This document shows positions 3,558-47,628 of a DNA stretch of 64,000 nt, piece by piece. The position numbers and the translations under genes were made by a program. The notes under the pieces were generated by a model. The model had not been told where the DNA came from. It did not search any database and saw only the letters and a program-made list of their open reading frames with translations. How positions within the stretch are numbered: position 1 is the first letter of the stretch; every line of letters starts with the position of its first letter. The stretch is from a virus (taxonomy: Duplodnaviria; Heunggongvirae; Uroviricota; Caudoviricetes), in IMG/VR virus record IMGVR_UViG_3300002835_005179, positions 1 to 64,000 of that record. The stretch is one strand, 5' to 3'.

Positions 3558-5498
3558 ATGGCTTTTCAGCTTAGTCCAGGCGTAAATGTTTCTGAAATCG
3601 ATTTAACAACTACGGTTCCTGCAGTTGCAACTTCAATTGGAGCAATTGCTGGCGCTTTCCAATGGGGCCCAGTTTTAGAAATAAGAACAATTTCTTCAGA
3701 AATTGAATTAATAGATACTTTCTTTAAACCAAATAACACTGTTGCAGATACTTTCTTTTCTGCAGCAAATTTCTTACAATATTCTAATGCTCTAAGAGTT
3801 GTTAGAAATGTTGGTACTGATGCTAGAAATGCAACAAATGGCGCTTCTGGTATTTCCGGATTGACTATTGCAAATGCTGGTGTGTCAAATAATATGGCAC
3901 CAGGAACTTTTGCATTATCATTTACAGGTGCTACTGGAGCAGGTTCTGGTGCTGCTGGTACTGCAACTATATCTTATGGTGCAACAGGAGCAATTGTTTC
4001 TGCAGTAACTCTGACAAATGCAGGATCAGGATATACTTCTGCTCCAACAGTTGGTATTACAGGTGCTACAGGATTTACTACAAATTTCTCTATCACATCA
4101 TCAACTGCAAATACTTTAATTATTAAGAATGAAACTGATTATCAACAAAATTATATTTCTGGTTCAGCTTCAGCTGCTGGTACTTGGACTGCAAAGTATC
4201 CAGGAATCTTAGGAAATTCTCTGAAAGTTTCAATTTGCGACTCTCAAACTTTTTCCAGTTGGACATATAAGAATGCATTTACAGTAACACCAGGAACTTC
4301 TGATTATGTATCTACTCGTGGTGGTTCTAATGACGAATTGCATGTTATTGTTATTGACGAAGATGGTGCGTTTACTGGAACGCCAGGAACAGTATTAGAA
4401 AAATATGCTTTCTTATCAAAAGCTTCTGATGCTAAGACTGAATCCGGAGAAACTAATTATTATGCAAATGTAATCAATACCAAGTCACAATATATCTGGT
4501 GGACTAATCACCCTTCAGTTGGTGTTGATTGGGGTTCTGCCTCAACTGGTATTGCATTCGATCTATCCGGTCCTCTAACTGCTTCATTATCTGCAGGAGT
4601 TGATGCAAATACATTAACTAATGGCGAAATCCAAGCTGGTTATGATCTATTTGCCGATCCAGAAACTATTGACGTAAATCTAATTATTGGTGGATCTTCA
4701 AATACTACTGTCGGAACTTATCTAGTCCAATCTATTGCAGAAAATAGAAAGGATGCTATTGTGTTCTTATCACCAGCCAAATCAGATGTTGTAGATAATA
4801 AAGGACAAGAAGTAACTGACATAACAACAACCAAAAATGCACTACAATTGTCATCATCTTATGCTGTTTTTGATTCTGGTTGGAAGTATCAATACGATAA
4901 GTACAATGATGTATTCCGCTGGGTTCCTCTAAATGCAGATATTGCTGGTCTATGTGCTAGAACCGATCAAACTAACGATCCATGGTTCTCGCCAGCTGGA
5001 TTTAACAGAGGAAATATCAAAAACGTTGTGAAGTTGGCATTCAATCCAGATAAGGCTGATAGAGATGATCTATATAAGATCGGCGTCAATCCTGTGGTAA
5101 CTTTCCCAGGACAAGGCACTATCTTATATGGAGATAAGACTCTTCTTTCTAAGCCTTCTGCTTTCGATAGAATCAATGTTCGTAGATTATTCATTGTTCT
5201 TGAAAAGGCAATTGCAACTGCTTCTAAATTCTCTCTATTTGAATTGAACGACGAATTTACTAGAGCACAATTTATTGGATTAGTTGAACCTTATCTACGA
5301 GATGTGCAAGGTAGAAGAGGAATTATCGATTTCAAGGTTGTGTGTGACGAAACCAATAATACTCCTCAAGTAATTGATTCTAATTCATTCGTTGGTGATA
5401 TCTATATTAAGCCAGCAAGATCTATCAATTTCATTCAATTGAATTTCGTAGCTGTCAGAACTGGCGTGGAATTTTCTGAGATTGTTGGACAATTCTAA
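3558..5498 (+). CDS. gp18: Contractile tail sheath protein (gp18-like) with an inserted Gly/Ala/Thr-rich domain
   Basis: 646 aa. N-terminus MAFQLSPGVNVSEIDLT and C-terminal RINVRRLFIVLEKAI..FIGLVEPYLRDVQ resemble T4 gp18. Lies between the terminase and tube genes. Confidence 0.85.
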   Translation: MAFQLSPGVNVSEIDLTTTVPAVATSIGAIAGAFQWGPVLEIRTISSEIELIDTFFKPNNTVADTFFSAANFLQYSNALRVVRNVGTDARNATNGASGISGLTIANAGVSNNMAPGTFALSFTGATGAGSGAAGTATISYGATGAIVSAVTLTNAGSGYTSAPTVGITGATGFTTNFSITSSTANTLIIKNETDYQQNYISGSASAAGTWTAKYPGILGNSLKVSICDSQTFSSWTYKNAFTVTPGTSDYVSTRGGSNDELHVIVIDEDGAFTGTPGTVLEKYAFLSKASDAKTESGETNYYANVINTKSQYIWWTNHPSVGVDWGSASTGIAFDLSGPLTASLSAGVDANTLTNGEIQAGYDLFADPETIDVNLIIGGSSNTTVGTYLVQSIAENRKDAIVFLSPAKSDVVDNKGQEVTDITTTKNALQLSSSYAVFDSGWKYQYDKYNDVFRWVPLNADIAGLCARTDQTNDPWFSPAGFNRGNIKNVVKLAFNPDKADRDDLYKIGVNPVVTFPGQGTILYGDKTLLSKPSAFDRINVRRLFIVLEKAIATASKFSLFELNDEFTRAQFIGLVEPYLRDVQGRRGIIDFKVVCDETNNTPQVIDSNSFVGDIYIKPARSINFIQLNFVAVRTGVEFSEIVGQF

Positions 5499-16913: not shown

Positions 16914-17790
16914 ATAAACTATCCAATTCTTCTTTCGCAATTTCAGCCATCCAATCAATAACGTCAATAACTTCGACATTATCAGAAATACCAGACTCTG
17001 TGAAAGAATTTGTTGTGTAGATCTTATCAAAGTATTTCGATAGATCATCGAATCCTTTCGAGAAGATTCCGTGTGTCACAAACAACCGAAGATTTGGGAT
17101 CTGCAACTTTTCAGCAATACCCAAGAAAGTTCCACCACCATCACAGATATCGTCGATGATATAAGAATTTCGTGTCGTGTCTTTGATTACTGGAACTTCG
17201 AAACCAAGAAATCTGCCAGTAACAGGATCACGTTTCTTTTTGCAGTAATATTTCGGATGATTATCGGAAAGCATATCAGCATATCTATTCTTCGCACCTT
17301 CATCCGGAAAGATAATATTTGCTTCAGGATCAGTTACAAGAATTTCTTGAATAATCTTATTAATCGGAATATCTTTATACTCATAATCAAACCTGTTAGA
17401 ATGACAATCTAAAGTATAGATTTTTGCATATGGCCAGACGCAGGTAATGATATTCAAGAAAACTTTCTTACCGAGACAATCTCCTTCTACGAAGCGACGA
17501 TCGGCTCTTGAATATGGAAGATAAGGAATCACAACAGCAATATTATTGGATGGCATAGACAAAGTAATATCGTTGATTGCATCTTGCAACAGAAGCAACT
17601 TCATTACATCATCGGAATTCTTAATTCGATGAATTAAGACAACACCAAAACACGAAGTCAATGCTTTGATAGTTTCGGGTTTGAGGCGAACCTGAAGTTC
17701 GCCTCCTGGATACTTAAACCACTCGTACGAATTTTCGTCGATACGCAATACATTACGATTGGACACGAACACGCTCCTTAATGGTTTCAA
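16906..17790 (-). CDS. prs: Ribose-phosphate pyrophosphokinase (PRPP synthetase)
   Basis: PRPP-binding loop IIDDICDGGGTF and length 294 aa. Confidence 0.8.
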   Translation of the reverse strand: MKPLRSVFVSNRNVLRIDENSYEWFKYPGGELQVRLKPETIKALTSCFGVVLIHRIKNSDDVMKLLLLQDAINDITLSMPSNNIAVVIPYLPYSRADRRFVEGDCLGKKVFLNIITCVWPYAKIYTLDCHSNRFDYEYKDIPINKIIQEILVTDPEANIIFPDEGAKNRYADMLSDNHPKYYCKKKRDPVTGRFLGFEVPVIKDTTRNSYIIDDICDGGGTFLGIAEKLQIPNLRLFVTHGIFSKGFDDLSKYFDKIYTTNSFTESGISDNVEVIDVIDWMAEIAKEELDSLYV

Positions 17791-19228
17791 ACTTCACTTT
17801 ATTCAGTATACCGTCTTTCAAGATGCAAGTCAAGTCGCAATTTTCAAGTTCTTCGAGAGTCGCTTCTTCCTTACAAATCCAGTTGTTATTTTCTGGAGTC
17901 CAATCTGGAGCCTTGTAGACAGCAAGAATACCTTTACGAGATTTCTTCATTCCAGAATCAGTCTTTGGATCCTTAAAGATAGGAATGATTTTTCCATCTT
18001 TTTCGATAGCAGTCGCCTTCATTGCGAATCCGAAAGTGTCTCTTGTGACATACTCATAAGTATATGACCCGACACCAAACACCATATTATATGGTGAGAT
18101 CTTCAATTTCTCAACGATGCCAGATAGAATCTGGCGTGCACGATCCAACGTAATCGAATCACCATAGATACAACCTGCTTTGTTGATCATACGATTATGA
18201 TCCAAACCAAAAACTTCTTTCAGAAGAGCCAAGACACCAAGATCAGCTGGTCCATTACCTCGTTCTTGAATGCTAGAATTATTCTTGCCTAGTACAATCT
18301 CAACAGGATCACCGGAATCAGGACGAATAACAATCTTACCGTTACGAGCAATGATTTTATCTTTCAAACGAGGCATGAAGTCTGTTAGAACAGTCCACAG
18401 ATCCCAAGTATCAGAAACGATCGAAACGATTCCTTCTGGATAGATATCTTCAACTAGACGACGGAAAGTTTCAAATTCGTCTTCTTTACCACCAGCACAC
18501 ATAACAGAGTGCTCTGTAGCAGGAACAGAAGAACCTGTCGTAGCAATGTTTGCATCATAATAATGCTCAGCTGCTAGAATAGCAGGGATAGTATCAGTTC
18601 CATTGAACGATAGAAGGTGACCCATACCAGAAGCTACTGCATCACCTAGAGACGACATACCACGCATGGAGAAATCGTGGAATTGATAATCGATGAAACC
18701 AAAATCAGTCTCTCCTGCTTTTCGTGCCCATTCCATACCAATCTTACGATATTCAAGAGCAGTCGTTGCCGAAGTGTATGGTTTCCAAATAGATAGAGAA
18801 AGAATCGTTTCTAGGAAATTAGGAAGCCAGAAAGCGTGGTCGACTGTATTGTAAATGACAAGAGATGGAATTCCAATATTAACCGAATATCCTTCCGGAA
18901 TTGCGTAGATGTTAATAGGAAGACGTCCTTCATCATGAAGTGCCTTGATGTGGTCTGTTTTGGGATTCTGAATTCCAAGAGTTTTAGAGATTACACGGAC
19001 ATATTCTGCTTCTACTTCGATCCAAGGTACAGAGAAAAAGCTATTATCGAATTCCTTCAGAAGATCAAGTAGAAAATACTGGTGTCCAAAAACAACAATT
19101 TTTTCAATACCAGGGACACGAGATTTTCGTGCAGTCCAATTTGAGTAGACTCGTGTCACTCCTTCTGGATATTGGCGAACGTGATCAATCTTGTAGAAGT
19201 CTGCTAAGAGAACTGGGATGGTGTTCAT
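17753..19228 (-). CDS. nadV: Nicotinamide phosphoribosyltransferase (NAMPT/NadV)
   Basis: N-terminus NTIPVLLADFYKIDHVRQYP and the block FHDFSMRGMSS. Start set at MNTIP (19228). Confidence 0.85.
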   Translation of the reverse strand: MNTIPVLLADFYKIDHVRQYPEGVTRVYSNWTARKSRVPGIEKIVVFGHQYFLLDLLKEFDNSFFSVPWIEVEAEYVRVISKTLGIQNPKTDHIKALHDEGRLPINIYAIPEGYSVNIGIPSLVIYNTVDHAFWLPNFLETILSLSIWKPYTSATTALEYRKIGMEWARKAGETDFGFIDYQFHDFSMRGMSSLGDAVASGMGHLLSFNGTDTIPAILAAEHYYDANIATTGSSVPATEHSVMCAGGKEDEFETFRRLVEDIYPEGIVSIVSDTWDLWTVLTDFMPRLKDKIIARNGKIVIRPDSGDPVEIVLGKNNSSIQERGNGPADLGVLALLKEVFGLDHNRMINKAGCIYGDSITLDRARQILSGIVEKLKISPYNMVFGVGSYTYEYVTRDTFGFAMKATAIEKDGKIIPIFKDPKTDSGMKKSRKGILAVYKAPDWTPENNNWICKEEATLEELENCDLTCILKDGILNKVKFETIKERVRVQS

Positions 19229-19279
19229 AATTAACCTTTCTTTATTCATTATACTAAATATAGAATCAGAAAGCAAGCT

Positions 19280-19967: not shown

Positions 19968-19996
19968 TTGACGACTAAACCGCAATTTAGTAAAAT
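19968..19996 (+). promoter_or_regulatory. Sigma70-like promoter TTGACG-N17-TAAAAT
   Basis: Followed by a leader containing an AAGGAG site and the ATG at 20017. Confidence 0.4.
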
Positions 19997-20016: not shown

Positions 20017-20283
20017 ATGAAGAAGATTCTTACAGAAGTACAGGGCGAAGGTTTGGTTGCCCTTCTAGGTGAGCATGTGATGTTGTTCTGTGCGAACTAC
20101 ATCTATGCTGGTACACTCACTGGAGTGAACGATACATGTGTCCTTCTAGACGATGCGAAGATTGTTTATGAGACTGGTCCGTTCAGCGATGCGAAGTACA
20201 AGGACGCTCAGAGTCTTCCTACCAAGTCTTGGTATATCCAGACTTCTGCGATTGAGTCTTTCGGCATCGGCAAGAAGGGTTAA
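20017..20283 (+). CDS. Hypothetical protein (88 aa) with Sm/LSm-like motif
   Basis: VMLFCANYIYAGTLTGVNDTCVLLDDAKIV resembles an Sm1 motif (G-x-L-x3-D..hydrophobic-L-x-D). Strong ribosome-binding site and its own terminator. Confidence 0.5.
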   Translation: MKKILTEVQGEGLVALLGEHVMLFCANYIYAGTLTGVNDTCVLLDDAKIVYETGPFSDAKYKDAQSLPTKSWYIQTSAIESFGIGKKG

Positions 20284-20285
20284 GT

Positions 20286-20319
20286 GATGGGGGATTTAAA
20301 ATCCCCCATCCTTTTATTT
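20286..20319 (+). terminator. Rho-independent terminator
   Basis: GATGGGGGAT-ttaaa-ATCCCCCATC followed by CTTTTATTT. Confidence 0.75.
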
Positions 20320-20421
20320 GTTCTATGAAAAATATGTTTACAAGAGAACTTGTAAAAATATTGCATCTAGATCTGGTTCTAATTCATCTGGTTGGTCGGT
20401 AGCAACTTGGACTCCTACATC

Positions 20422-20607
20422 ATGAAGAAATCAATTTACAAAAGAAATATTGGGTCTAGGTCTTGGTCTGGGTCTAGGTCTTGGTCTTGGTCTGGGTCTT
20501 GGTCTGGGTCTTGGTCTGAGTCTAGGTCTAGGTCTGAGTCTAGGTCTAGGTCTGAGTCTAGGTCTGGGTCTGGGTCTGGGTCTTGGTCTTGGTCTAGGTC
20601 TAACTAA
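20422..20607 (+). CDS. Ser-Xaa dipeptide-repeat small protein, copy 1 (61 aa)
   Basis: Leader MKKSIYKRNIG, then (S-[RWGE])n encoded by (TCTNGG)n, ending RSN-TAA 4 nt before the next ATG. Confidence 0.5.
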   Translation: MKKSIYKRNIGSRSWSGSRSWSWSGSWSGSWSESRSRSESRSRSESRSGSGSGSWSWSRSN

Positions 20608-20611
20608 AAAT

Positions 20612-20854
20612 ATGATAAAGAAATCAATTTACAAAAGAAATATTGGGTCTTGGTCTAGGTCTGGGTCTAGGTCTGGGTCTGAGTCTAGGTCTGAGTCTTG
20701 GTCTTGGTCTGGGTCTGAGTCTAGGTCTGAGTCTGGGTCTTGGTCTAGGTCTTGGTCTGAGTCTTGGTCTAGGTCTGGGTCTGGGTCTAGGTCTAGGTCT
20801 AGGTTTAGGTCTGGGTCTAGGTCTAGGTTTAGGTTTAGGTCTGGGTCTAACTAA
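20612..20854 (+). CDS. Ser-Xaa dipeptide-repeat small protein, copy 2 (80 aa)
   Basis: Leader MIKKSIYKRNIG plus the repeat, ending GSN-TAA. Confidence 0.5.
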   Translation: MIKKSIYKRNIGSWSRSGSRSGSESRSESWSWSGSESRSESGSWSRSWSESWSRSGSGSRSRSRFRSGSRSRFRFRSGSN

Positions 20855-20858
20855 AAAT

Positions 20859-21083
20859 ATGATAAAGAAATCAATTTACAAAAGAATTATTTGGTCTAGG
20901 TCTGGGTCTGAGTCTGGGTCTAGGTCTTGGTCTGAGTCTGGGTCTTGGTCTTGGTCTTGGTCTTGGTCTGAGTCTTGGTCTGGGTCTAGGTCTTGGTCTG
21001 GGTCTGGGTCTTGGTCTTGGTCTGGGTCTGAGTCTGGGTCTTGGTCTAGGTCTAGGTCTGGGTCTAGGTCTGGGTCTAACTAA
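20859..21083 (+). CDS. Ser-Xaa dipeptide-repeat small protein, copy 3 (74 aa)
   Basis: Leader MIKKSIYKRIIW plus the repeat, ending GSN-TAA. Confidence 0.5.
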   Translation: MIKKSIYKRIIWSRSGSESGSRSWSESGSWSWSWSWSESWSGSRSWSGSGSWSWSGSESGSWSRSRSGSRSGSN

Positions 21084-21087
21084 AAAT

Positions 21088-21123
21088 ATGATAAAGAAAT
21101 CAATTTACAAAAGAATTATTTGA
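21088..21123 (+). pseudogene. Truncated fourth copy (leader only, MIKKSIYKRII-stop)
   Basis: Same leader DNA as copies 2 and 3, but it runs into TGA with no repeat array. Confidence 0.4.
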
Positions 21124-21165: not shown

Positions 21166-23391
21166 ATGATTATTTCACATTCTCCTGATAATAATGTTGT
21201 TCTTTCTTCTATTGATAGAACAGATGAATTTAAAATCAAGAATTCTTCGAAAGCATTCTCGATTTTAAGTTCTGGTTTATATGCAAATAAGATTAAAGCG
21301 ATTATTCGAGAACTTTCTTGTAATGCTTATGATTCGCATGTGGCAGCAGGAAAGAAGGATATTCCGTTTGACGTACACCTTCCTAATCGTATTGAACCAT
21401 GGTTCTCTATTCGTGATTATGGAACTGGTCTAGATGACACACAAGTGAAATCTATCTATACAACTTATTTCGAATCAACGAAAACGCATTCGAATGAATT
21501 CGTTGGTGCACTTGGACTTGGTTCCAAATCACCATTCAGTTATACTGAAAACTTCAGCATCACTACGATTAAGAACGGTAAGTGTTGGATTTTTAGTGCG
21601 TTCGTGAATGAACATGGCATCCCTTCCATTGCGTCTATGGGAGTTTCTGATACGACAGAACCGAACGGCGTTGAGATTAAATTTTCAGTAGATAACCAAG
21701 ACGATATCGTTAAGTTTGTCACAGAAGCTCCTAACGTATTTATCTGGTTCGAGACACAACCAAATATCTCCGGTAATAGAGAGTATACATTATCTTTCGA
21801 TTACGTCGTTAAAAGAGAAAAGAATTACGAAGAACAGAATATCATACCAGGAATTCATGTATTATCTACAAGAGGTTATGGTACTAGTAAAGCTCTGATG
21901 GGAAATATCTGTTATCCTATTGATGTTCCAAACGCAAAAACGAATTTAACGGATAAACTGCATTCTTTACTATCCAATAATCTTGTAATGGAATTCAATA
22001 TTGGAGAATTAGATTTCCAAGCTTCTCGAGAAGGTTTGGCTTACACTCCGTTGACTATTTCTTCAATCAAGAATAAACTTCAAAAGTTAAGTGATTCATT
22101 GTACTGTATTCTAGATGAACAAGCTAAACAACACAATCATAATTCTTGGTTTCTTGCAGATTTCTTAGTTAATAAAAATTCTCTTCCTATTTGGAAGATG
22201 ACTGTGACAGAATATGTAAATAATAATAACTTAAATGTTGTCGCAATTAACAAATACAATAATTTACATGAAATCTATTACAATGTAATTTCTATTTCGC
22301 GAGAAAAGTGTTCTGAATTCAATATTTCAATTAATTCTTTCGAAAAGGATTCGTATTCTGGAAGAACTAGAAGATATGATCTAAATAACTCTGGCATTAA
22401 TATGTATCAAACATGTTCAAAATACAAGTTCATTATTAATGATACGACTATTGGTGCTGGAGAAAGATGTAAACGATATATCGATAATCTAGAAACAGGA
22501 CACAAGATAAAGAAATTTATCCTTTTACAGAAAATCGATAAAGATAAAGATATGAATCTTGAAGAATTCTTCAAGTCAATAAGTAATCCACCAGATGATA
22601 TTATCATAAATGTTTCTACCCTTCCGGAATTGGAAAAGAAAAAGAGAACCAAAGATGTAACAGTTGTTAAAATACAAGAAGATAATAGAAAATATTACAA
22701 TCCAAATTATACTTGGAAAGAATGTGGTAAATTACAAGATCTAAATAACACGACGAATACCATGTATTATATTCCTCTTTCTGGGTATAATGTTATTTCA
22801 AATTACACTACTGACTTTAAAGGAGTCTATAAATTATTGAAAGAATGTGGTTTTTTTGGACCGATTGGTTCACGTATGACTATTTATGGAATCAGAAAAG
22901 GGGATATTGAATCACTTTCGAATTATCCAAATTGGATAAATATTGAACGTGTTATTATCGATAAATTACAATCCGAAAAAGAATCCATTAAGAATCGAAT
23001 TTATGCAGATTTGAATATTGACTGCATCAATAAATTCAAGTATAATAAAAATATATTGGATAAATTGAATGATAATTCTCCATTCAAGAAAGTTGTTCAA
23101 GAATTCAATATAACAAATAATTCGAAAAACAACAAACCAGGTTCAATTAATTCCTATATGATGTTGGCGAATATATATTCCAACGATAATATCTATAAAG
23201 AATTAAAGGAATTCCAGTTGGCGGCAGAAACTAAAGTGCAAACAATTTTAAATAGATATCCATTATTACGTTATATGGTTGATATTGATTCTTATTTGTT
23301 TGAAACAGACAAAAATAGATATGATGTATTTGCAGGATACATTAATTTAATTGACGATCAGAAAAAGGAGTTAACATGTTCCCTTACTTAA
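21166..23391 (+). CDS. rIIA: rIIA-like protein (GHKL ATPase-type N-terminus)
   Basis: 741 aa. N-terminal IRELSCNAYDS..DYGTGL..GALGLGSKS matches an HATPase_c-like pattern. Directly upstream of rIIB. Confidence 0.8.
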   Translation: MIISHSPDNNVVLSSIDRTDEFKIKNSSKAFSILSSGLYANKIKAIIRELSCNAYDSHVAAGKKDIPFDVHLPNRIEPWFSIRDYGTGLDDTQVKSIYTTYFESTKTHSNEFVGALGLGSKSPFSYTENFSITTIKNGKCWIFSAFVNEHGIPSIASMGVSDTTEPNGVEIKFSVDNQDDIVKFVTEAPNVFIWFETQPNISGNREYTLSFDYVVKREKNYEEQNIIPGIHVLSTRGYGTSKALMGNICYPIDVPNAKTNLTDKLHSLLSNNLVMEFNIGELDFQASREGLAYTPLTISSIKNKLQKLSDSLYCILDEQAKQHNHNSWFLADFLVNKNSLPIWKMTVTEYVNNNNLNVVAINKYNNLHEIYYNVISISREKCSEFNISINSFEKDSYSGRTRRYDLNNSGINMYQTCSKYKFIINDTTIGAGERCKRYIDNLETGHKIKKFILLQKIDKDKDMNLEEFFKSISNPPDDIIINVSTLPELEKKKRTKDVTVVKIQEDNRKYYNPNYTWKECGKLQDLNNTTNTMYYIPLSGYNVISNYTTDFKGVYKLLKECGFFGPIGSRMTIYGIRKGDIESLSNYPNWINIERVIIDKLQSEKESIKNRIYADLNIDCINKFKYNKNILDKLNDNSPFKKVVQEFNITNNSKNNKPGSINSYMMLANIYSNDNIYKELKEFQLAAETKVQTILNRYPLLRYMVDIDSYLFETDKNRYDVFAGYINLIDDQKKELTCSLT

Positions 23392-24145: not shown

Positions 24146-24220
24146 GCGCTTGTAGCATAATGGTAATGTAGAAGATTCTAAACCTTCGAGATGAGAGTTC
24201 GATTCTCTCCAAGCGCACCA
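24146..24220 (+). tRNA. tRNA with anticodon CUA (amber suppressor type), CCA encoded
   Basis: - Acceptor stem GCGCTTG/CAAGCGC.
- D arm GCAT-AATGGTA-ATGT.
- Anticodon stem GAAGA/CCTTC with one A-C mismatch, loop TT-CTA-AA.
- Variable region GAGAT.
- T arm GAGAG-TTCGATT-CTCTC.
- Discriminator A followed by CCA. Confidence 0.8.
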
Positions 24221-24770: not shown

Positions 24771-25762
24771 TGTTATCTTTTAAATCTTTTCTTATACTAG
24801 AAGGTGGCGTCGGGGGCCACATGGCGCATGTTTTTGACATATCTTCAACTGGAAAAGAATTGATTGGAGTATTTAAGGAAGCAATCAAATTCATCAATTC
24901 TGGTAAGACATCTGTTAAGATAGATGGAATCAATGCTTCACTTCGTTTGGTTGAAGGAAAATTTGTTCTAGATCGTGGTTCGGCAAAGCCTTTGGATATT
25001 AAAGGAATTCGTCCAGAAGATTTGGAAGATAGATTTGGACAAGGACATGGATTTGTTGAAAAAGGAAAGAAGATAATTGACATTTTTGACACAGCTTATC
25101 CGAAAATTAAGCCAGAATTGGAGAAACTTGGTCTTTTAAATAATCCTAATATCTTATTCAATACTGAGTATGTTGAAGGTAAGACTAATGTTGTTCAATA
25201 TGAAGGAATCGATAATTTCTTAGCAATCCATGGATTAAAAGAAATTAAGGTTAATAAGACAAATCCAAAGACTGGCGTTGTTACATCAAGAGTAGCTTCC
25301 AATATTTCATTCGATCAAACAACAATGGCTTCTCTTATCAAGAAATTAGATGAAGTTGCAAAAGCTTTTGGATTTAAAGTTCTCGGTAATGTTGGTGTAA
25401 CATTCAAAGAGAACCCTGATTTAACCAAGGTTTTATCAGAAGAGATTACTCTAAACGAACAAACTAAAACGCTTGGAGAATGGTTATCTAATCTGACATT
25501 TAAGACTCCTCTAATTACAAGAGCAAAATTCATCCAAATTATGAACTCAGATAAGAAAGATCTTACTGAGAAACAACTTACAGATTATCTAGTTTATATT
25601 GCAACTATTCGCCTTGGTGATGAAATTCTTAATAGTTCAACTTCAGATCTAGGCGATCTTAAAGGTCAAGAAGGAATCGTCATAAGAAGATCTGATAATT
25701 CTTTATACAAAATAACTGGATCGTTTATTCTTCGTGGATTAGAATCTACATTTGGAAAGTAA
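24770..25762 (+). CDS. Ligase-like nucleotidyltransferase candidate with capsid-targeting-like N-terminus
   Basis: N-terminus MLSFKSFLILE. Candidate motif I VKIDG, motif III FNTEYVEG, motif IV QEGIVIRR and motif V LYKITGSF. The assignment is inferred from motifs only. Confidence 0.45.
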   Translation: MLSFKSFLILEGGVGGHMAHVFDISSTGKELIGVFKEAIKFINSGKTSVKIDGINASLRLVEGKFVLDRGSAKPLDIKGIRPEDLEDRFGQGHGFVEKGKKIIDIFDTAYPKIKPELEKLGLLNNPNILFNTEYVEGKTNVVQYEGIDNFLAIHGLKEIKVNKTNPKTGVVTSRVASNISFDQTTMASLIKKLDEVAKAFGFKVLGNVGVTFKENPDLTKVLSEEITLNEQTKTLGEWLSNLTFKTPLITRAKFIQIMNSDKKDLTEKQLTDYLVYIATIRLGDEILNSSTSDLGDLKGQEGIVIRRSDNSLYKITGSFILRGLESTFGK

Positions 25763-25763
25763 T

Positions 25764-27926
25764 ATGTCTAAGAAATATTTCGCACGTCTATCTAAGTCTA
25801 CAGCTACTAAAAGAAAAACATTCTGGAAGAAACTTGGTTCTTATCCGTTCACTAAAGATGAGTATGATCGTGCGGAAAAAGTTCCTGGAGATGCGAAGTC
25901 TGAGACAAGACCATCGCAATATAATAAGAAGTATAGAGAAATGTATGAAGCAGTACATAATGAAGCTCCTTATCTAAAATGGGGTATTATTTCTCCAACT
26001 GGTAAAGTTATTTCTGGCGATGAATATAAAAGTAGTGATAATTTGAATCATGCATCATTTCTTGTCAGACTTGGGTTAGAAAAAGAATACGATCTAAATG
26101 GGAAAAATTCGAACTATTCAAGATATGCTATTTTGAAGGATGTCTATGGATTAACCTCAATAATAACCATACCAGGTCGTGCAAAAATTGATTCTGTTAT
26201 AAAAGCATGGAAAAATATTCCGATGGGAGATGATATATTAATCTTACTTAGTAAGTATAATGATGATGAATATGAAGGTCCTTCATCTAAAGCTCTATCG
26301 TGGTTAAAACAATATAAATCAAAAGTACAAGAAGAATATGACGAAATCAGTGAATCCAGATCAATCAAGGCGCTTCAAAAGAAAGCAAAAGCTTCTGGTG
26401 TTCCTTATTCTATCTTGAAGCGAGTTTATAATCGTGGTATGGCTGCTTGGGTTACAGGACACAGACCAGGTGCAACACAATCTGCTTGGGCATTTGCAAG
26501 AGTCAATTCGTTCCTAACAAAAGGAAAGACTTGGTATGGGCCAGATGCAGATCTCGCGAAGAAAGCAAGAAAGTATCTACAAGAAGCTCATTTTATACCA
26601 CAATATTTTGATTGGGGCTGGATTGATGATCGTGGAAATATTCAATATCCAGAAGAGCATGATAGAACACATACATCTATTCTAAGAAGATTAACAGAAA
26701 AACAACCTGAATATAATTTGGGCGATAGGCCAACAGAAACTGATGCAACAAAACAAGGTTGGATTCGTTGGGTAGTTGAATACAGCAATTCTGAATTTGT
26801 TTTATTTTTCAATACAAAGAAATTGATTAAAACGATAAAGATGTATAGATCTATAGAAAATATTGTAAATAAACATAAAGATTCGTCATATATTTCATTT
26901 GATTTGCCTAGAAAATTTATACAATCTAGAACGAGGAACGAATTCATGTTAGAGCTATCTAAGGTATTTGGAATAAAAGAAGATCAAGATTACGAAATAG
27001 AAATGATTTCTGGACAATTAAAGAAAATTATAGATCTATCTACAGATACCTTGAATATTATCCAGAATCAGTCAGAAATTCCTGCATGGATTCAAGATAA
27101 GATCTCAGTTTCTACTCATAACGCAGAAGCAATATTTGATTACTACAATTATTCGGAAGAAAAGATTCAAGAAGAAACGCAGATGAAGAAAGTTGTCATA
27201 TTTCCAGGTGGTTTCCATCCATTCCATAAAGGCCATTATTCGGTTTATACTGCAATCAAAAAGAAATTTCCAGATGCAGATGTATATGTTGCTTCAACAA
27301 ACGAACAAACCGAAAGACCATTTTCATTTGAAGATAAAAAATATCTAGCAAGTCAACTAGGAGTTCCTGAGAAATCATTCGTTGAAGTAAAGATTCCATA
27401 TGTTGCTACAGAGATTACACGGAAATATGATAAAAAGAATACGATAGTTATCTTTGCTATTTCTGGAAAAGATCCAGATAGAATCTCTTACACAAAGAAA
27501 GATGGTACACCAGGATACTTTGCAGAATGGACTGGTGAAAATGTCGAACCATTTGAATCAAAAGGATATATCTTTATTACACCAAAGGTAGATTTTAAGA
27601 TTGCAGGTAAACAAGTTGATTCTGCTTCAATGATTAGAAAAATGTATAAAGAAGCTGATGATTCAGAAAAGAATCAAATTATCAAAGATATGTATCCTGG
27701 TGGTGATGTCAAAAATATTAAAAAAATCTTAGACAATAATTTGATAGATTCTACACAAGAATCAGTAGAAATTATTTCTGAAACTATCAGATGCAGTAAG
27801 AAGACTGGTAAGAATATCTGTTTCGTATTCTCTAAAAAGGGTAAGAAGATGGGTGGTCCATATTCTGAAACGAAAGCCAAGAAAAGACTCAGACAAATTG
27901 AATTCTTCAAACATTTAAATAAATAA
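25764..27926 (+). CDS. Multidomain protein: two WGWI-type repeats, an RGMAAW..GHRPG..ARVNSF domain, and a C-terminal NMN-adenylyltransferase-like (GxFxPxHxGH) domain
   Basis: Start is the ATG at 25764 (track uses TTG at 25752). The C-terminal region has PGGFHPFHKGH and VDSASMIR, matching cytidylyltransferase/NMNAT signatures. Confidence 0.6.
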   Translation: MSKKYFARLSKSTATKRKTFWKKLGSYPFTKDEYDRAEKVPGDAKSETRPSQYNKKYREMYEAVHNEAPYLKWGIISPTGKVISGDEYKSSDNLNHASFLVRLGLEKEYDLNGKNSNYSRYAILKDVYGLTSIITIPGRAKIDSVIKAWKNIPMGDDILILLSKYNDDEYEGPSSKALSWLKQYKSKVQEEYDEISESRSIKALQKKAKASGVPYSILKRVYNRGMAAWVTGHRPGATQSAWAFARVNSFLTKGKTWYGPDADLAKKARKYLQEAHFIPQYFDWGWIDDRGNIQYPEEHDRTHTSILRRLTEKQPEYNLGDRPTETDATKQGWIRWVVEYSNSEFVLFFNTKKLIKTIKMYRSIENIVNKHKDSSYISFDLPRKFIQSRTRNEFMLELSKVFGIKEDQDYEIEMISGQLKKIIDLSTDTLNIIQNQSEIPAWIQDKISVSTHNAEAIFDYYNYSEEKIQEETQMKKVVIFPGGFHPFHKGHYSVYTAIKKKFPDADVYVASTNEQTERPFSFEDKKYLASQLGVPEKSFVEVKIPYVATEITRKYDKKNTIVIFAISGKDPDRISYTKKDGTPGYFAEWTGENVEPFESKGYIFITPKVDFKIAGKQVDSASMIRKMYKEADDSEKNQIIKDMYPGGDVKNIKKILDNNLIDSTQESVEIISETIRCSKKTGKNICFVFSKKGKKMGGPYSETKAKKRLRQIEFFKHLNK

Positions 27927-45062: not shown

Positions 45063-46463
45063 TTAGAATTTGAAATTATCGAAGTTCTTCTTATATTTCG
45101 AAGAACCATATCCTGAATCAAATTCACCATAATTATTATCCTGATAAGGATCTTGAATACCACCTTCTCCATCAATCTGAATATCACCGATATCAAATAA
45201 TCTCATCTTAGATCTATCAATACCAACCAAGAATTTCTTATTCTTAGTCACATCATTATATCTATTCTTCAACTGTTTAATCATCAACTGACCAAGTTTT
45301 TCTAATTCTTCTGTATTAATTAGAGCAATCATGAAATCGCAAGTGGCGGCGACGCCGAAACTTTCTGCAATATCACCCATACCAGCATCAGAATCAGACG
45401 CTCCAGATCTCGTAAATTGTGATGCGGATACGATCGGAAGATTAGCTTCTACAGCAAGACCACGAACTTCTTCAGCAATAGACTTAACCAACATATAAGA
45501 ATTTACTTGACCGTTATTCTTAATTCTTGAAGAAGCACAAATATTCAAATAATCAATATAGATAATATCTGGAATAAACTTCTTCTTTAGAGCAAGTTCA
45601 TGTAGAAGATATCTGAAGTGTGATACGTTGGCTGAACCAGTTGGATATTCCTTGATAACCAACTTGCCTGGTGTTCGACTTTCTAACTTATTAATTAGTG
45701 ATAAGAATTGTTTCTTAGAAATTTGTTTTAGAGTATCTAAGGTAATATCCAATAGATTCGCATCAATTCTCTCGGCGATTCTTTCTTCAGCCATTTCACA
45801 TGTAATATACAAAACATTCTTACCATCAAGAACATTAGAAGCTGCCATATGACACATCGCCAAAGTTTTTCCAGCATTAACACCACCAAGAATTAAGTTT
45901 AGCGTTTTTCTCGGAAGTCCTCCACCAGTAATAAGATTTAAATTCTGGATATCAAAACGAATTCTCTCTTCTTTCTTATGATAAAATTCAAATCTTGTTT
46001 CTGCATCAGAAACAAAATCATGACCAACTGATGGATCGAATGTAATTGCAAGAGCTTCTTTAAGAATTTCAGGAATAGAACCTTTATCTCTAGTATCTTT
46101 TTCATCAGATATAATCTTAATAGAATCTAAGATTGCATTATGCAATGATTTTTCTTTACAAAATGATTCAGTCTGTTTGATCAAGAATTTTAAATCAGTT
46201 TGCTCATTCTTCGACCAAGAATCTAATAGATTAGATATTACTTCTGAGTCTTCAATTTTAATCTTCTTAGATTCAGAAGTCATAATCTTAATAGCTTCTA
46301 CGGAAGCTTGTTTATTATATTCTGTGACAAACGAATTAATGAATTTAAATATACTTCTATCATTATGATCCGAAAAATATTCAGACTTTAGAAAGGGTAA
46401 TACTGATCTAGTATATTCTTCGTTATGTAAGAGATTCTTTAAAACCAAATGTTCAATTTTCAT
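45063..46463 (-). CDS. gp41: Replicative DNA helicase (gp41, DnaB-like)
   Basis: Walker A GGVNAGKTLAM and DnaB-type blocks. Start set at MKIEHL (46463), preceded by AGGAGAA. The longer track ORF reads into the degenerate repeat. Confidence 0.9.
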   Translation of the reverse strand: MKIEHLVLKNLLHNEEYTRSVLPFLKSEYFSDHNDRSIFKFINSFVTEYNKQASVEAIKIMTSESKKIKIEDSEVISNLLDSWSKNEQTDLKFLIKQTESFCKEKSLHNAILDSIKIISDEKDTRDKGSIPEILKEALAITFDPSVGHDFVSDAETRFEFYHKKEERIRFDIQNLNLITGGGLPRKTLNLILGGVNAGKTLAMCHMAASNVLDGKNVLYITCEMAEERIAERIDANLLDITLDTLKQISKKQFLSLINKLESRTPGKLVIKEYPTGSANVSHFRYLLHELALKKKFIPDIIYIDYLNICASSRIKNNGQVNSYMLVKSIAEEVRGLAVEANLPIVSASQFTRSGASDSDAGMGDIAESFGVAATCDFMIALINTEELEKLGQLMIKQLKNRYNDVTKNKKFLVGIDRSKMRLFDIGDIQIDGEGGIQDPYQDNNYGEFDSGYGSSKYKKNFDNFKF

Positions 46464-46674
46464 AATTAGTTTTCTCCTGTGATAACGACCAAGAATTAGA
46501 GTCTGAACCTGAGCCTGAAGAAGATAAATTTGCAGACCAAGATTCTGATTTGGGTATCTCTCCGGACCAAGACCAGGATCCCGATCTGCGTGAATTTCCA
46601 ATTCCACTCCATGATCCAGAAAATAAACGAGTCCAATATATATATTCTGATTTCTTTCTTAATTTGTGAATCAT
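46453..46674 (-). CDS. Diverged Ser/Gly/Trp-rich small protein (73 aa), member of the Ser-Xaa family
   Basis: Basic leader MIHKLRKKSEYIYW followed by SGSWSGIGNSRRSGSWSWSG.., using mixed Ser codons (tct, tca, agt, tcg, tcc). It has an ATGA overlap with the upstream gene and an 11-nt overlap with the gp41 start. Confidence 0.55.
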   Translation of the reverse strand: MIHKLRKKSEYIYWTRLFSGSWSGIGNSRRSGSWSWSGEIPKSESWSANLSSSGSGSDSNSWSLSQEKTNYEN

Positions 46675-46865
46675 AAATTGGATGTCCCGGATTTAGAACC
46701 ATATCGATATCTACTGTCGGTAATCCATGATAGATAATGATTAGATTGGCCAGACTTAGAAGATAAGAAGATACTCGAAGAGGTTCCGCATCTATGGAGA
46801 CCGGAGAAGAACCTCTTCTTGGAATTAAATCTCAATCTAATAGATTTTCTTTTTGTTGTTAACAT
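46671..46865 (-). CDS. Diverged Ser/Gly-rich small protein (64 aa), member of the Ser-Xaa family
   Basis: Basic leader MLTTKRKSIRLRFNSKKRFF followed by an S/G-rich tail with mixed Ser codons. Confidence 0.5.
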   Translation of the reverse strand: MLTTKRKSIRLRFNSKKRFFSGLHRCGTSSSIFLSSKSGQSNHYLSWITDSRYRYGSKSGTSNL

Positions 46866-46896: not shown

Positions 46897-47064
46897 TTAA
46901 TTTCCAGACCTAGACCAAGACCTAGACCTAGACCTAGACCAAGACTCAGACCTAGACTCAGACCTAGACCAAGACCCAGACCTAGACCTAGACCTAGACC
47001 AAGACCAAGACCAAGACCCAGACCTAGACCAAATAATTCTTTTGTAAATTGATTTCTTTATCAT
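46897..47064 (-). CDS. Ser-Xaa dipeptide-repeat small protein (55 aa)
   Basis: MIKKSIYKRIIW leader plus a (TCTNGG)n repeat, ending SGN-TAA. Confidence 0.5.
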   Translation of the reverse strand: MIKKSIYKRIIWSRSGSWSWSWSRSRSRSGSWSRSESRSESWSRSRSRSWSRSGN

Positions 47065-47068
47065 ATTT

Positions 47069-47275
47069 TTAGTTAGACCTAGACCCAGACCTAGACCTAG
47101 ACCAAGACTCAGACCTAGACCCAGACCAAGACCAAGACCCAGACCCAGACCAAGACCTAGACCTAGACCCAGACCAAGACCCAGACCCAGACCCAGACCC
47201 AGACCAAGACCAAGACCCAGACTCAGACCTAGACCTAGACCCAATATTTTTTTTGTAAATTGATTTCTTTATCAT
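47069..47275 (-). CDS. Ser-Xaa dipeptide-repeat small protein (68 aa)
   Basis: MIKKSIYKKNIG leader plus the repeat, ending RSN-TAA 4 nt before the next ATG. Confidence 0.5.
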   Translation of the reverse strand: MIKKSIYKKNIGSRSRSESGSWSWSGSGSGSGSWSGSRSRSWSGSGSWSWSGSRSESWSRSRSGSRSN

Positions 47276-47289
47276 ATTACAATTATAAC

Positions 47290-47628
47290 TTATTTTGTAA
47301 TATTAGTCAACTGGGAATCATTTGCATGCAAAATAGCATATTCTAATATCTTCTTAATTAATTTCTTGACAATTTGAATCAGAGTTTTATCATTACTGGA
47401 TACATTATTGGGAGAGTACACAACTGTCATATCAAACGTCAATATAGAAGAATCTTCTTCTTCACAAGTTATATCTGTTATTTCTATAATAGTTTCTTTA
47501 TGTTTTCCTTCATCTAATCTCAATAATATCTTTTCGTTATTGTTGTGTTCTGTAATAAAGAACGATGCTTTCATATCTGAAAATGGTACTATCTTATATG
47601 ATTCTTCTTTTTGTTTAGTATTTTTCAT
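47290..47628 (-). CDS. Hypothetical acidic protein (112 aa)
   Basis: Track ORF lying between UvsX and the repeat genes. Confidence 0.45.
   Translation of the reverse strand: MKNTKQKEESYKIVPFSDMKASFFITEHNNNEKILLRLDEGKHKETIIEITDITCEEEDSSILTFDMTVVYSPNNVSSNDKTLIQIVKKLIKKILEYAILHANDSQLTNITK

Follow-up and report, generated by a model that had tools for sequence, protein, structure and literature searches.

The question raised by the DNA just upstream of the rIIA and rIIB genes of a T4-like phage with 34% GC is whether its long blocks of the hexamer TCTNGG are genes and, if so, in which frame they are read and with which partner their products act. This DNA lies in a stretch of 64,000 nucleotides (nt), here called the window, which comprises positions 1 to 64,000 of the IMG/VR virus record IMGVR_UViG_3300002835_005179 (Caudoviricetes), and an initial annotation, made from the sequence alone, had described there tandem small genes encoding a basic leader followed by dipeptides in which serine alternates with another residue (Ser-X). 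The comparisons given below leave little doubt that the (TCTNGG)n blocks are protein-coding and that every unit constitutes a small gene whose product is a microprotein standing on its own. They also strongly support a two-gene module, made up of the Ser-X gene and an upstream gene for an acidic protein of Sm/LSm fold, in which the type of leader co-varies with the partner subfamily.

All units and features of the initial annotation were found where it had placed them, including three complete units of 61, 80 and 74 amino acids (aa) and a fourth reduced to its leader, and the gene of the Sm-like partner at 20017-20283 is additional to what it had described. The features of this first locus are the following.

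19968..19996, plus strand: promoter-like site TTGACG-17-TAAAAT, 5' of the Sm-like gene, a candidate by consensus match only (10/12 in a consensus scan).
20017..20283, plus strand: partner gene for an acidic 88-aa protein of Sm/LSm fold, with an AGGAG Shine-Dalgarno sequence upstream.
20286..20310, plus strand: terminator-like hairpin with an 11-bp stem and then CTTTTATTTG, directly after the partner gene.
20318..20425, plus strand: old, decaying Ser-X unit (unit 0), TTG start, 35 codons.
20422..20607, plus strand: Ser-X unit 1, 61 aa, net charge +9.
20612..20854, plus strand: Ser-X unit 2, 80 aa, net charge +13.
20859..21083, plus strand: Ser-X unit 3, 74 aa, net charge +6.
21088..21123, plus strand: truncated unit 4, leader only (MIKKSIYKRII and stop), 43 nt 5' of the rIIA start at 21166.

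The complete units of this locus end in (R/G)SN and TAA, and the spacing of 4 nt between each stop and the following ATG, as previously claimed, is borne out. The leader MIKKSIYKR, which had been ascribed to every unit, is present in units 2-4, but unit 1 begins with MKKS and is composed of MKKSIYKRNIG, the Ser-X core and a terminal RSN. The degenerate member suspected in front of the row is real; it reads ..KYVYKRTCKNIASRSGSNSSGWS.. in mixed codons (AGA, GGT, TCA, TCG) and ends in a TGA that overlaps with the ATG of unit 1. The arrays of units 1, 2 and 3 contain 25, 34 and 31 hexamers, respectively, the block at 20453-21078 has TRF scores of 328-375, and a 28-nt leader sequence is found in six copies in the window at two or fewer mismatches, against 0 expected from 100 shuffles.

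Besides Ser-X, the repeat GGTCTN can be read as (Gly-Leu)n on the same strand or as (Arg-Pro)n on the opposite strand, and since the variable base is a synonymous third position in both, the Ser-X frame could not be assumed. Scanning of IMG/VR for six consecutive GGTCTN units gave more than 117 contigs of the TCT type, with a GC span of 27% to 73% among the matches listed, and 126 non-redundant TCT-type arrays, again among the matches listed, were used in a first frame test. An ATG was observed 15-75 nt upstream in the Ser-X frame of 101 of these arrays as compared to the Gly-Leu frame of a single one, and a stop codon follows within 30 nt in the Ser-X frame of 104. A second test covered all six frames of 164 arrays from unrelated viral contigs, with an array defined as NGG plus any serine codon. 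The Ser-X frame was found to be open in 163 of them, with an ATG 12-75 nt upstream in 132 and an ATG together with a nearby stop in 102, while the corresponding counts with ATG and with ATG plus stop are 16 and 7 for the antisense Arg-Pro frame and at most 21 and 8 for the remaining frames. In the same arrays, TAG never occupies an X position, against 56 GAG, 30 CAG and 9 AAG codons, and TGG accounts for about 30% of X codons. In the arrays of other phages, AGGAGG boxes often precede the ATG by 7 nt and tandem units often overlap by ATGA, and the ATG-led leaders vary widely between contigs (MITKRTKWRR, MVTKRTKYR, MRGRNQKYA, MIRGKKQK). Such frame-specific placement of starts and stops in more than 160 arrays, backed by the Shine-Dalgarno boxes, the ATGA overlaps, stop avoidance and switching of the serine codon described below, supports the earlier claim of tandem small genes with a basic leader and Ser-X core in the ATG frame.

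The Gly-Leu frame (GGT CTN) had been attractive, with a synonymous N and TTG-initiated open reading frames (ORFs) of 115-146 aa, but it was ruled out by the single upstream ATG in the first test and only 5 among the 164 arrays of the second, and by TCG and AGC arrays, which read there as Gly-Arg, Gly-Ala and the like. The antisense Arg-Pro frame, in which both N and the TCT/TCG switch are synonymous, was excluded by its low counts of ATG with or without a stop and by TCA arrays, which place TGA in frame. Recoding of TAG by a tRNA with anticodon CUA, opening the third frame, was also ruled out in the window, where read-through adds few codons and TAG ends 9 of 60 genes. The tRNA itself, an amber suppressor (ARAGORN label tRNA-Pyl; 64 bits with the Rfam tRNA model), is encoded at 24146-24220 on the plus strand, directly after rIIB.

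In close relatives, synonymous changes (AAG/AAA, TCA/TCT, ATT/ATC) leave the leader M(I)KKSIYKRNI(W/G/V) intact, while the cores vary in length and order and one to four copies are present per locus. Loss of codon-level conservation in the leader, or array lengths changing by non-multiples of three, had been named in the initial annotation as signs against coding; the leader is conserved at the codon level, and variation is in multiples of six only. In the relative L003, whose flanks at a second locus of the window (locus 2, see below) are 96-97% identical, one unit of 67 aa with a different core is present as compared to two in the window, and L122-L124 likewise differ in repeat number. Judged from such pairs, the arrays turn over fast. 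The suggestion of a contingency locus holds insofar as length and copy number change quickly among relatives, but since the repeat unit is 6 nt, every change of length is in frame and the gene is not switched on and off.

Searching by hexamer is biased to TCT, and therefore a repeat-independent sample was taken via the partner gene, as many arrays follow a gene ending in ..IESFG.., like the window ORF at 20017-20283. An alignment of 33 among the 287 unnamed homologs of the partner led to 303 viral contigs, of which 80 were kept; at 50% identity, 529 partner clusters are distinguished. In the partner-selected loci, serine is encoded by TCT (1177), TCG (691), AGC (148), TCA (98) and TCC (51), with a codon that is nearly uniform within an array and differs from phage to phage, and in the GenBank record MW202825 TCG, TCT and TCA are mixed in one ORF. 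Since AGC belongs to another codon box than TCN, the conserved thing is the serine. At the X positions, Gly, Arg and Trp occur in proportions of 0.34, 0.31 and 0.29 in all three GC bins (<40%, 40-50%, >50%), and their order along the arrays is near random and slightly over-mixed, which argues that bulk composition is what is kept. X codons of young arrays are almost solely NGG even in AT-rich phages (GGG 765 as compared to 51 for GGA, GGT and GGC together). A constraint on the RNA or DNA was ruled out as the cause, because old copies such as unit 0 and copy D of locus 2 lose NGG yet keep the alternation of Ser with Gly or Trp. The presence of one serine codon and NGG per array is explained by arrays arising and turning over by replication slippage, and we infer that, with TGG as the single Trp codon, Gly and Arg codons one substitution away must be NGG. 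On this codon evidence, a uniform serine codon with NGG is the mark of young arrays, and what selection maintains, as far as these comparisons reach, is the reading frame, the leader and the bulk composition. The alternative that (GGUCU)n RNA or DNA is itself the functional entity, as raised in the initial annotation, is disfavoured: array RNA folds better than shuffles (z = -5.8), with a predicted pairing that depends on GGUCU, but this motif is not conserved in TCG or AGC arrays.

Over all loci, 199 distinct Ser-X ORFs were collected, ranging from 27 to 140 aa (median 64 aa, interquartile range 55-73) and built of an N-terminal leader of 7-12 residues and 15-50 Ser-X dipeptides, in tandem runs of one to seven copies. 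Their net charge has a median of +10 and is positive in 98%, and they contain 38.5% Ser, 13.2% Gly, 12.9% Arg and 11.0% Trp. No transmembrane or signal sequence and no wall anchor was apparent in the peptides on inspection by eye. A single-sequence AlphaFold2 (AF2) run on unit 2 gave a three-stranded beta-meander with a predicted local distance difference test score (pLDDT) of 74 in one of five models and scores of 53-59 in the others, which is weak evidence. Small ORFs of another type, at L009 4680-4980 and L083 11109-11405, encode (Ser-Trp)n followed by a hydrophobic tail rich in Leu and Ala (MLSPWSWSCSHSWSWSW...CAGDCALLLLALLALLALLALLGTLIGALMFWL), and these may represent either relatives with a membrane anchor or repeat proteins that are unrelated. 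The record MW202825.1 is flagged UNVERIFIED_CONTAM and annotates just the second of its two Ser-X ORFs (UOF82383.1, hypothetical); right behind these ORFs comes a third, truncated leader, and then a fragment of an Illumina adapter, GATCGGAAGAGC (L121 ~3620-3640).

The partner consists of a single domain in which a short N-terminal helix is followed by five strongly bent antiparallel beta-strands, as in the Sm fold. A second type of upstream gene encodes about 112 aa with the signature ..ASW(V/I)AD(S/T)GRF.., and hhalign shows it to be homologous to the 88-aa family (probability 95.6%, E 1.2e-8). Both families are acidic, with a median isoelectric point (pI) of about 5 (about 4.9 for the partner), and the peptides have a pI of 11.3-12. 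Among the 80 loci, chosen only through the partner, 72 have a Ser-X ORF directly downstream, and in several of the eight exceptions the contig ends 50-200 nt from the partner gene. In about 32 loci the stop of the partner and the Ser-X ATG overlap (offset -4, ATGA), and in most the two are no more than 11 nt apart. Leaders beside the 88-aa family are strongly basic, roughly M-R-x-x-K-Q-K-Y/W-R (for example MIKKSIYKRNIG), and those beside the 112-aa family are neutral or hydrophobic (MNQAILRxGW, MxxGFDR). Besides the Sm-like gene, no neighbour is common to more than 8 of the 80 loci, save two minus-strand clusters at the position of the array, which are taken to be antisense artefacts; the annotated neighbours are replication, recombination and nucleotide-metabolism genes from differing phage types. 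Candidate fusions were rejected on both sides, the long partner homologs being N-terminal extensions or tandem Sm domains and the 'large' Ser-X ORFs being either long arrays or frames that read in through the partner gene. In the relatives P0121, P0126 and P0152, a single chain of 186-218 aa contains two Sm-like domains, as would fit a self-associating domain.

Ten of the 80 partner-selected contigs end about 50-250 nt past the Sm-like gene (L129, L138, L145, L153, L157, L176, L186, L187, L193 and L199). As contigs end inside or at the array, the repeats are seen to break short-read assemblies, and hence the family is probably under-counted. A megablast search with the DNA of the region found nothing similar among GenBank phages. 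When a large protein database was searched with the peptide, none of 190 candidates received a score, an outcome attributed to the composition filter of HMMER. In tblastn searches against 50,697 phage records, assumed to include T4-like phages, the 88-aa partner gave one match, a metagenomic contig, and with either partner family the matches were confined to two metagenomic Manatee Spring contigs. Among cellular genomes, only 10 contigs of metagenome-assembled genomes (MAGs), from unrelated phyla, are carriers.

A second locus in the window, absent from the initial annotation, was revealed by TRF, which reported the reverse-complement hexamer at 46906-47241. This locus (47275-46453, minus strand) lies between UvsX and a gp41-type helicase, beside a family B DNA polymerase, and contains two young units with the leader of locus 1 and two older, diverged copies.

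47282..47310, minus strand: near-consensus promoter TTGACT-17-TATAAT, a candidate by consensus match only (11/12 matches).
47069..47275, minus strand: Ser-X unit A, 68 aa, net charge +10.
46897..47064, minus strand: Ser-X unit B, 55 aa, net charge +12.
46671..46865, minus strand: older diverged copy C, 64 aa, with the basic leader MLTTKRKSIRLRF, Ser-rich, periodicity mostly lost.
46453..46674, minus strand: older copy D, 73 aa, reading ..SGSWSGIGNSRRSGSWSWSGEIPKSESWS...

The end of the candidate promoter's -10 box is 6 nt upstream of the unit A ATG, a spacing compatible with an mRNA that has no leader or almost none; the promoter sequence is identical in L003, and L069 carries TGgTATAAT-N6-ATG. 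Copy C has 97% identity in L003. Copy D overlaps its neighbours on both sides, its ATG with the stop of copy C and its 3' end with the helicase start, which is probably at about 46463. Copy D retains the alternation of Ser with Gly or Trp (..SGSWSG..SGSWSWSG..SESWS..) in mixed codons, with TCA 8, TCT 8, TCG 2, TCC 2 and AGT 1 for Ser, GGA 5, GGC 1 and GGT 1 for Gly, and AGA 2, CGT 1 and CGC 1 for Arg. The DnaB-like helicase ORF, when called from a GTG (45063-46607, minus strand, 514 aa), is over-extended at its 5' end into copy D, and the sequence of its first 48 residues is odd; the true start is probably not this GTG at 46607 and rather the ATG at 46463 (MKIEHL..), with the Pfam DnaB N-terminal match beginning at residue 50. 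Between UvsX and locus 2, an acidic ORF of 112 aa (47290-47628, minus strand), retained in L003, contains the locus 2 promoter within its 3' end and has only a sub-threshold Pfam match (PHD_like, E 0.0066); it stands where gene 40 lies in T4.

For the system as a whole, the best explanation, to which we assign a probability of roughly 0.4, is that the Ser-X peptides work together with the Sm-like protein on nucleic acids. The Ser-X peptides would be flexible or beta-prone polycations with Arg and Trp as contact residues and Ser and Gly as spacers. Through its leader, each peptide may bind to the acidic Sm-like protein, itself probably assembled as a ring; such docking is proposed because the leader co-varies with the partner family and because charges are complementary in the 88-aa family. 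The peptides are likely made early in infection, a timing proposed because replication genes surround the module and because locus 2 is preceded by a candidate sigma-70-type promoter of its own. As a multivalent assembly, peptide and Sm-like protein would then bind to RNA or to nucleic acid in general and change the fate of host or phage RNA, in effect supplying Arg-rich tails in trans to an Sm-like core. The mechanism so specified, with the peptides as nucleic-acid-binding polycationic partners of the Sm-like protein early in infection, is put forward tentatively. A bolder version, in which an Sm-like ring and leader-docked, Ser/Gly-spaced Arg/Trp peptides, regenerated by slippage, constitute a minimal self-renewing kit for building ribonucleoprotein (RNP) and form RNA-containing, condensate-like bodies early on, we regard as doubtful.

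Several observations weigh against this explanation. No Pfam LSM or Hfq match to an Sm1/Sm2 sequence motif was obtained for the partner even at E<=1, and its family profile found no Sm protein among PDB sequences. The partner has an invariant Y-E-T-G where canonical Sm proteins have Arg-Gly, so that it may not bind RNA canonically, or at all. In the window, the partner gene and the first full unit are separated by the strong terminator-like hairpin and a gap of 138 nt, and because of that hairpin unit 1 begins downstream and does not overlap the partner. No partner gene adjoins locus 2, and with five full young units for one partner gene in the window a stoichiometric pairing is not obvious. 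Natural fusions of the Sm-like domain with Ser-X, or of Ser-X with other domains, were not present in the data, and the composition of the peptides is equally compatible with membrane-active Arg/Trp peptides or a toxic polycation. Moreover, all carriers are uncultured (the two GenBank Manatee Spring contigs, the IMG/VR contigs and the MAG contigs).

The compatibility with toxic polycations leads to a different account, a rather unlikely one in our estimate, in which a host-takeover toxin is paired with its chaperone: Arg/Trp peptides would coat nucleic acids, ribosomes or the inner membrane, and the acidic Sm-like protein would neutralise or escort them. It agrees with the gene order, in which a small acidic gene is followed, often at the 4-nt ATGA overlap, by a small and very basic one, with Trp and Arg contents of 11% and 13%, with the amphipathic beta-strands that the alternation produces in the one confident AF2 model and with the location in early-gene regions, locus 1 adjoining rIIA/rIIB. 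However, a tight stoichiometric neutralisation is not in keeping with a partner gene that has several peptide genes, or with loci that lack a partner and have a promoter to themselves, no toxin, antitoxin or defence model was matched in Pfam or PADLOC, and the inspection by eye showed neither a transmembrane nor a signal sequence. Clearly less to be expected is that the units are cis-acting translated leader ORFs, on which ribosome traffic tunes or protects the expression of rIIA and of the gp41-type helicase, with the Sm-like protein acting on RNA and the peptides as by-products. Both loci of the window do lie directly 5' of larger, co-oriented genes, the chain A-B-C-D overlaps into the helicase start, a primase-helicase is located downstream of the module in seven other loci, and RNA carrying the gene 41 5' region is described as raised by the T4 LSm-like mutant GoF(D25Y) (PMC12152347). 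By-products, however, would keep neither Ser across switches of codon box, nor a constant G:R:W ratio at any GC, nor partner-specific leaders, and the downstream genes vary widely between loci.

A role of (NGG-UCU)n RNA or DNA itself, as a periodic ligand of the Sm-like ring, as a sponge for it or through G-rich structures, with translation incidental, is very unlikely. The near-exclusive use of NGG in young arrays, the folding score of array RNA and the RNA-chaperone fold of the partner would suit it, but arrays that use TCG, AGC, TCA or TCC could not maintain GGUCU self-pairing across array types, copy D preserves its alternation without NGG, whose prevalence is explained by array youth and the single Trp codon, and the placement of starts, stops and Shine-Dalgarno boxes and the absence of TAG are frame-specific; the data on serine codons, frame and copy D have thus largely refuted it. 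A defence decoy is given a very slender chance. GW182 and viral GW mimics, such as plant-virus suppressors, present Trp in a Gly/Ser context as 'Ago hooks', and the peptides could mimic these and block, for example, a prokaryotic Argonaute, or their Ser/Arg tracts could soak up a host modifying enzyme. Repeated W flanked by S or G in a low-complexity region resembles such hooks, and hypervariability with changing copy number is typical of arms-race genes, but no defence or anti-defence gene is linked to the module among the neighbour genes or in PADLOC, we know of no evidence for Trp-binding pockets in prokaryotic Argonautes, and neither the Sm-like partner nor the equal share of Arg would be explained. 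Finally, there is next to no probability left for functionless slippage products, selfish microsatellites open in one frame by chance. Very fast turnover and contigs that often end inside arrays would be expected of them, but such a view is contradicted by the conservation of the same frame, leader, composition and partner in hundreds of independent phages, by stop avoidance and a narrow length distribution and by decayed DNA repeats that still encode Ser alternating with Gly or Trp.

Two further features of the window were recorded. A full-length two-piece (permuted) tmRNA of alphaproteobacterial type at 37828-38207 on the minus strand (Rfam RF01849, 92.9 bits; RF04321, 99.9 bits) is a hint that the host of this 34%-GC phage is an alphaproteobacterium. 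NAD-salvage-type genes lie on both sides of the rII region, encoding a nicotinamide phosphoribosyltransferase and a 724-aa protein with DUF5824 and a cytidylyltransferase-like domain.

17753-19276, minus strand: NAD-salvage-type gene.
25752-27926, plus strand: NAD-salvage-type gene.

The earlier remark that no characterised phage family matches these proteins is upheld, since no equivalent of the peptide or the module was found in Pfam, PHROGs, NCBIfam or PADLOC, and no description of the Trp-bearing motif strings or of the module topic was found in the literature, whose coverage was incomplete. By comparison with databases and literature, the Ser-X genes and the Sm-like gene would represent a new kind of system, whose function is predicted only. 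They constitute an unannotated gene class, abundant in environmental phages and overlooked by gene callers and family databases, and an evolutionary case in which a microsatellite keeps creating protein sequence while selection appears to hold only frame, leader and composition. A content of 50% Ser with equal Gly, Arg and Trp is the type of composition used in designed phase-separating or nucleic-acid-binding polymers, and the link to an Sm-fold protein offers phage biology an approachable system of a folded core and a low-complexity partner. Should the peptides turn out to be toxic or to act on RNA, phages would have in them a novel type of tool for host takeover.

The presence of LSm-like proteins in T4-type phages was recognised only very recently, and the module takes this further. 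GoF as well as MotB.1 and Frd.2 of T4 are described as small early proteins with an LSm-type five-stranded bent beta-sheet and suspected post-transcriptional roles, and the GoF(D25Y) mutant as stabilising RNA that carries the 5' region of gene 41, the helicase gene (PMC12152347). The LSm-type fold is shared with the partner, and locus 2 of the window sits exactly at the 5' end of the helicase gene. In contrast, GoF has 141 aa, with an LSm-like N-terminal domain, a linker and a C-terminal domain, whereas the partner is one 88-aa domain, and repeat-peptide genes are not mentioned in the Introduction and section 2.2 of that paper (PMC12152347). The tblastn search of the 50,697 phage records revealed no sequence relation of the partner to GoF, MotB.1 or Frd.2. 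Two small, co-oriented genes that overlap by ATGA recall type II toxin-antitoxin systems, but neither product matches a toxin or antitoxin family in Pfam, NCBIfam or PADLOC. Like the precursors of ribosomally synthesised and post-translationally modified peptides (RiPPs), the Ser-X peptides are encoded by small genes in tandem, their leader conserved and their core variable, but no modifying enzyme is conserved nearby in the 80 loci. The SD repeats of staphylococcal MSCRAMM proteins (ClfA, SdrC/D) and the serine-rich repeat glycoproteins likewise consist of Ser-X dipeptides from length-variable short DNA repeats, and SD-repeat and serine-rich adhesins are the only database models touched by the peptide, below threshold (17-19 bits as compared to cut-offs of 999-2500); their X, however, is Asp, and they are large, secreted, wall-anchored proteins with the repeat as a stalk.

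In the C9orf72 GGGGCC expansion, a hexanucleotide repeat is similarly read as dipeptide repeats, giving the Arg-rich polycations poly-GR and poly-PR, which bind RNA and ribosomes, but those are pathological, non-ATG products, whereas the phage genes are ATG-initiated, selected and provided with a leader and a partner. With the RS domains of SR proteins and the GW/WG regions of GW182 type, the peptides share Ser-Arg dipeptides and Trp in a Ser/Gly-rich low-complexity sequence, Trp making up 11% of residues and always standing between two Ser. The RS-domain-like composition pointed out earlier is a likeness of pattern only: Arg is only about 31% of X, Arg-Ser is not dominant and the peptides, which come from a prokaryotic, viral setting, stand alone with neither an RNA-recognition motif (RRM) or other folded domain nor a known kinase or Argonaute partner. 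In eukaryotes, SmD1, SmD3, SmB and LSm4 carry a tail of Arg-Gly dipeptide repeats on an Sm core, and Hfq has a disordered C-terminal tail. The combination of an Sm-fold core with a low-complexity, Arg-containing dipeptide repeat is the same, but in the phages the core is acidic and has no recognisable Sm motifs, and the repeat is a separate polypeptide, encoded downstream, Ser-based with Trp, multicopy and hypervariable. If the reading as a kit for RNP assembly is true, the module would be a prokaryotic-virus counterpart of eukaryotic Sm cores with their RG, RS or GW low-complexity regions.

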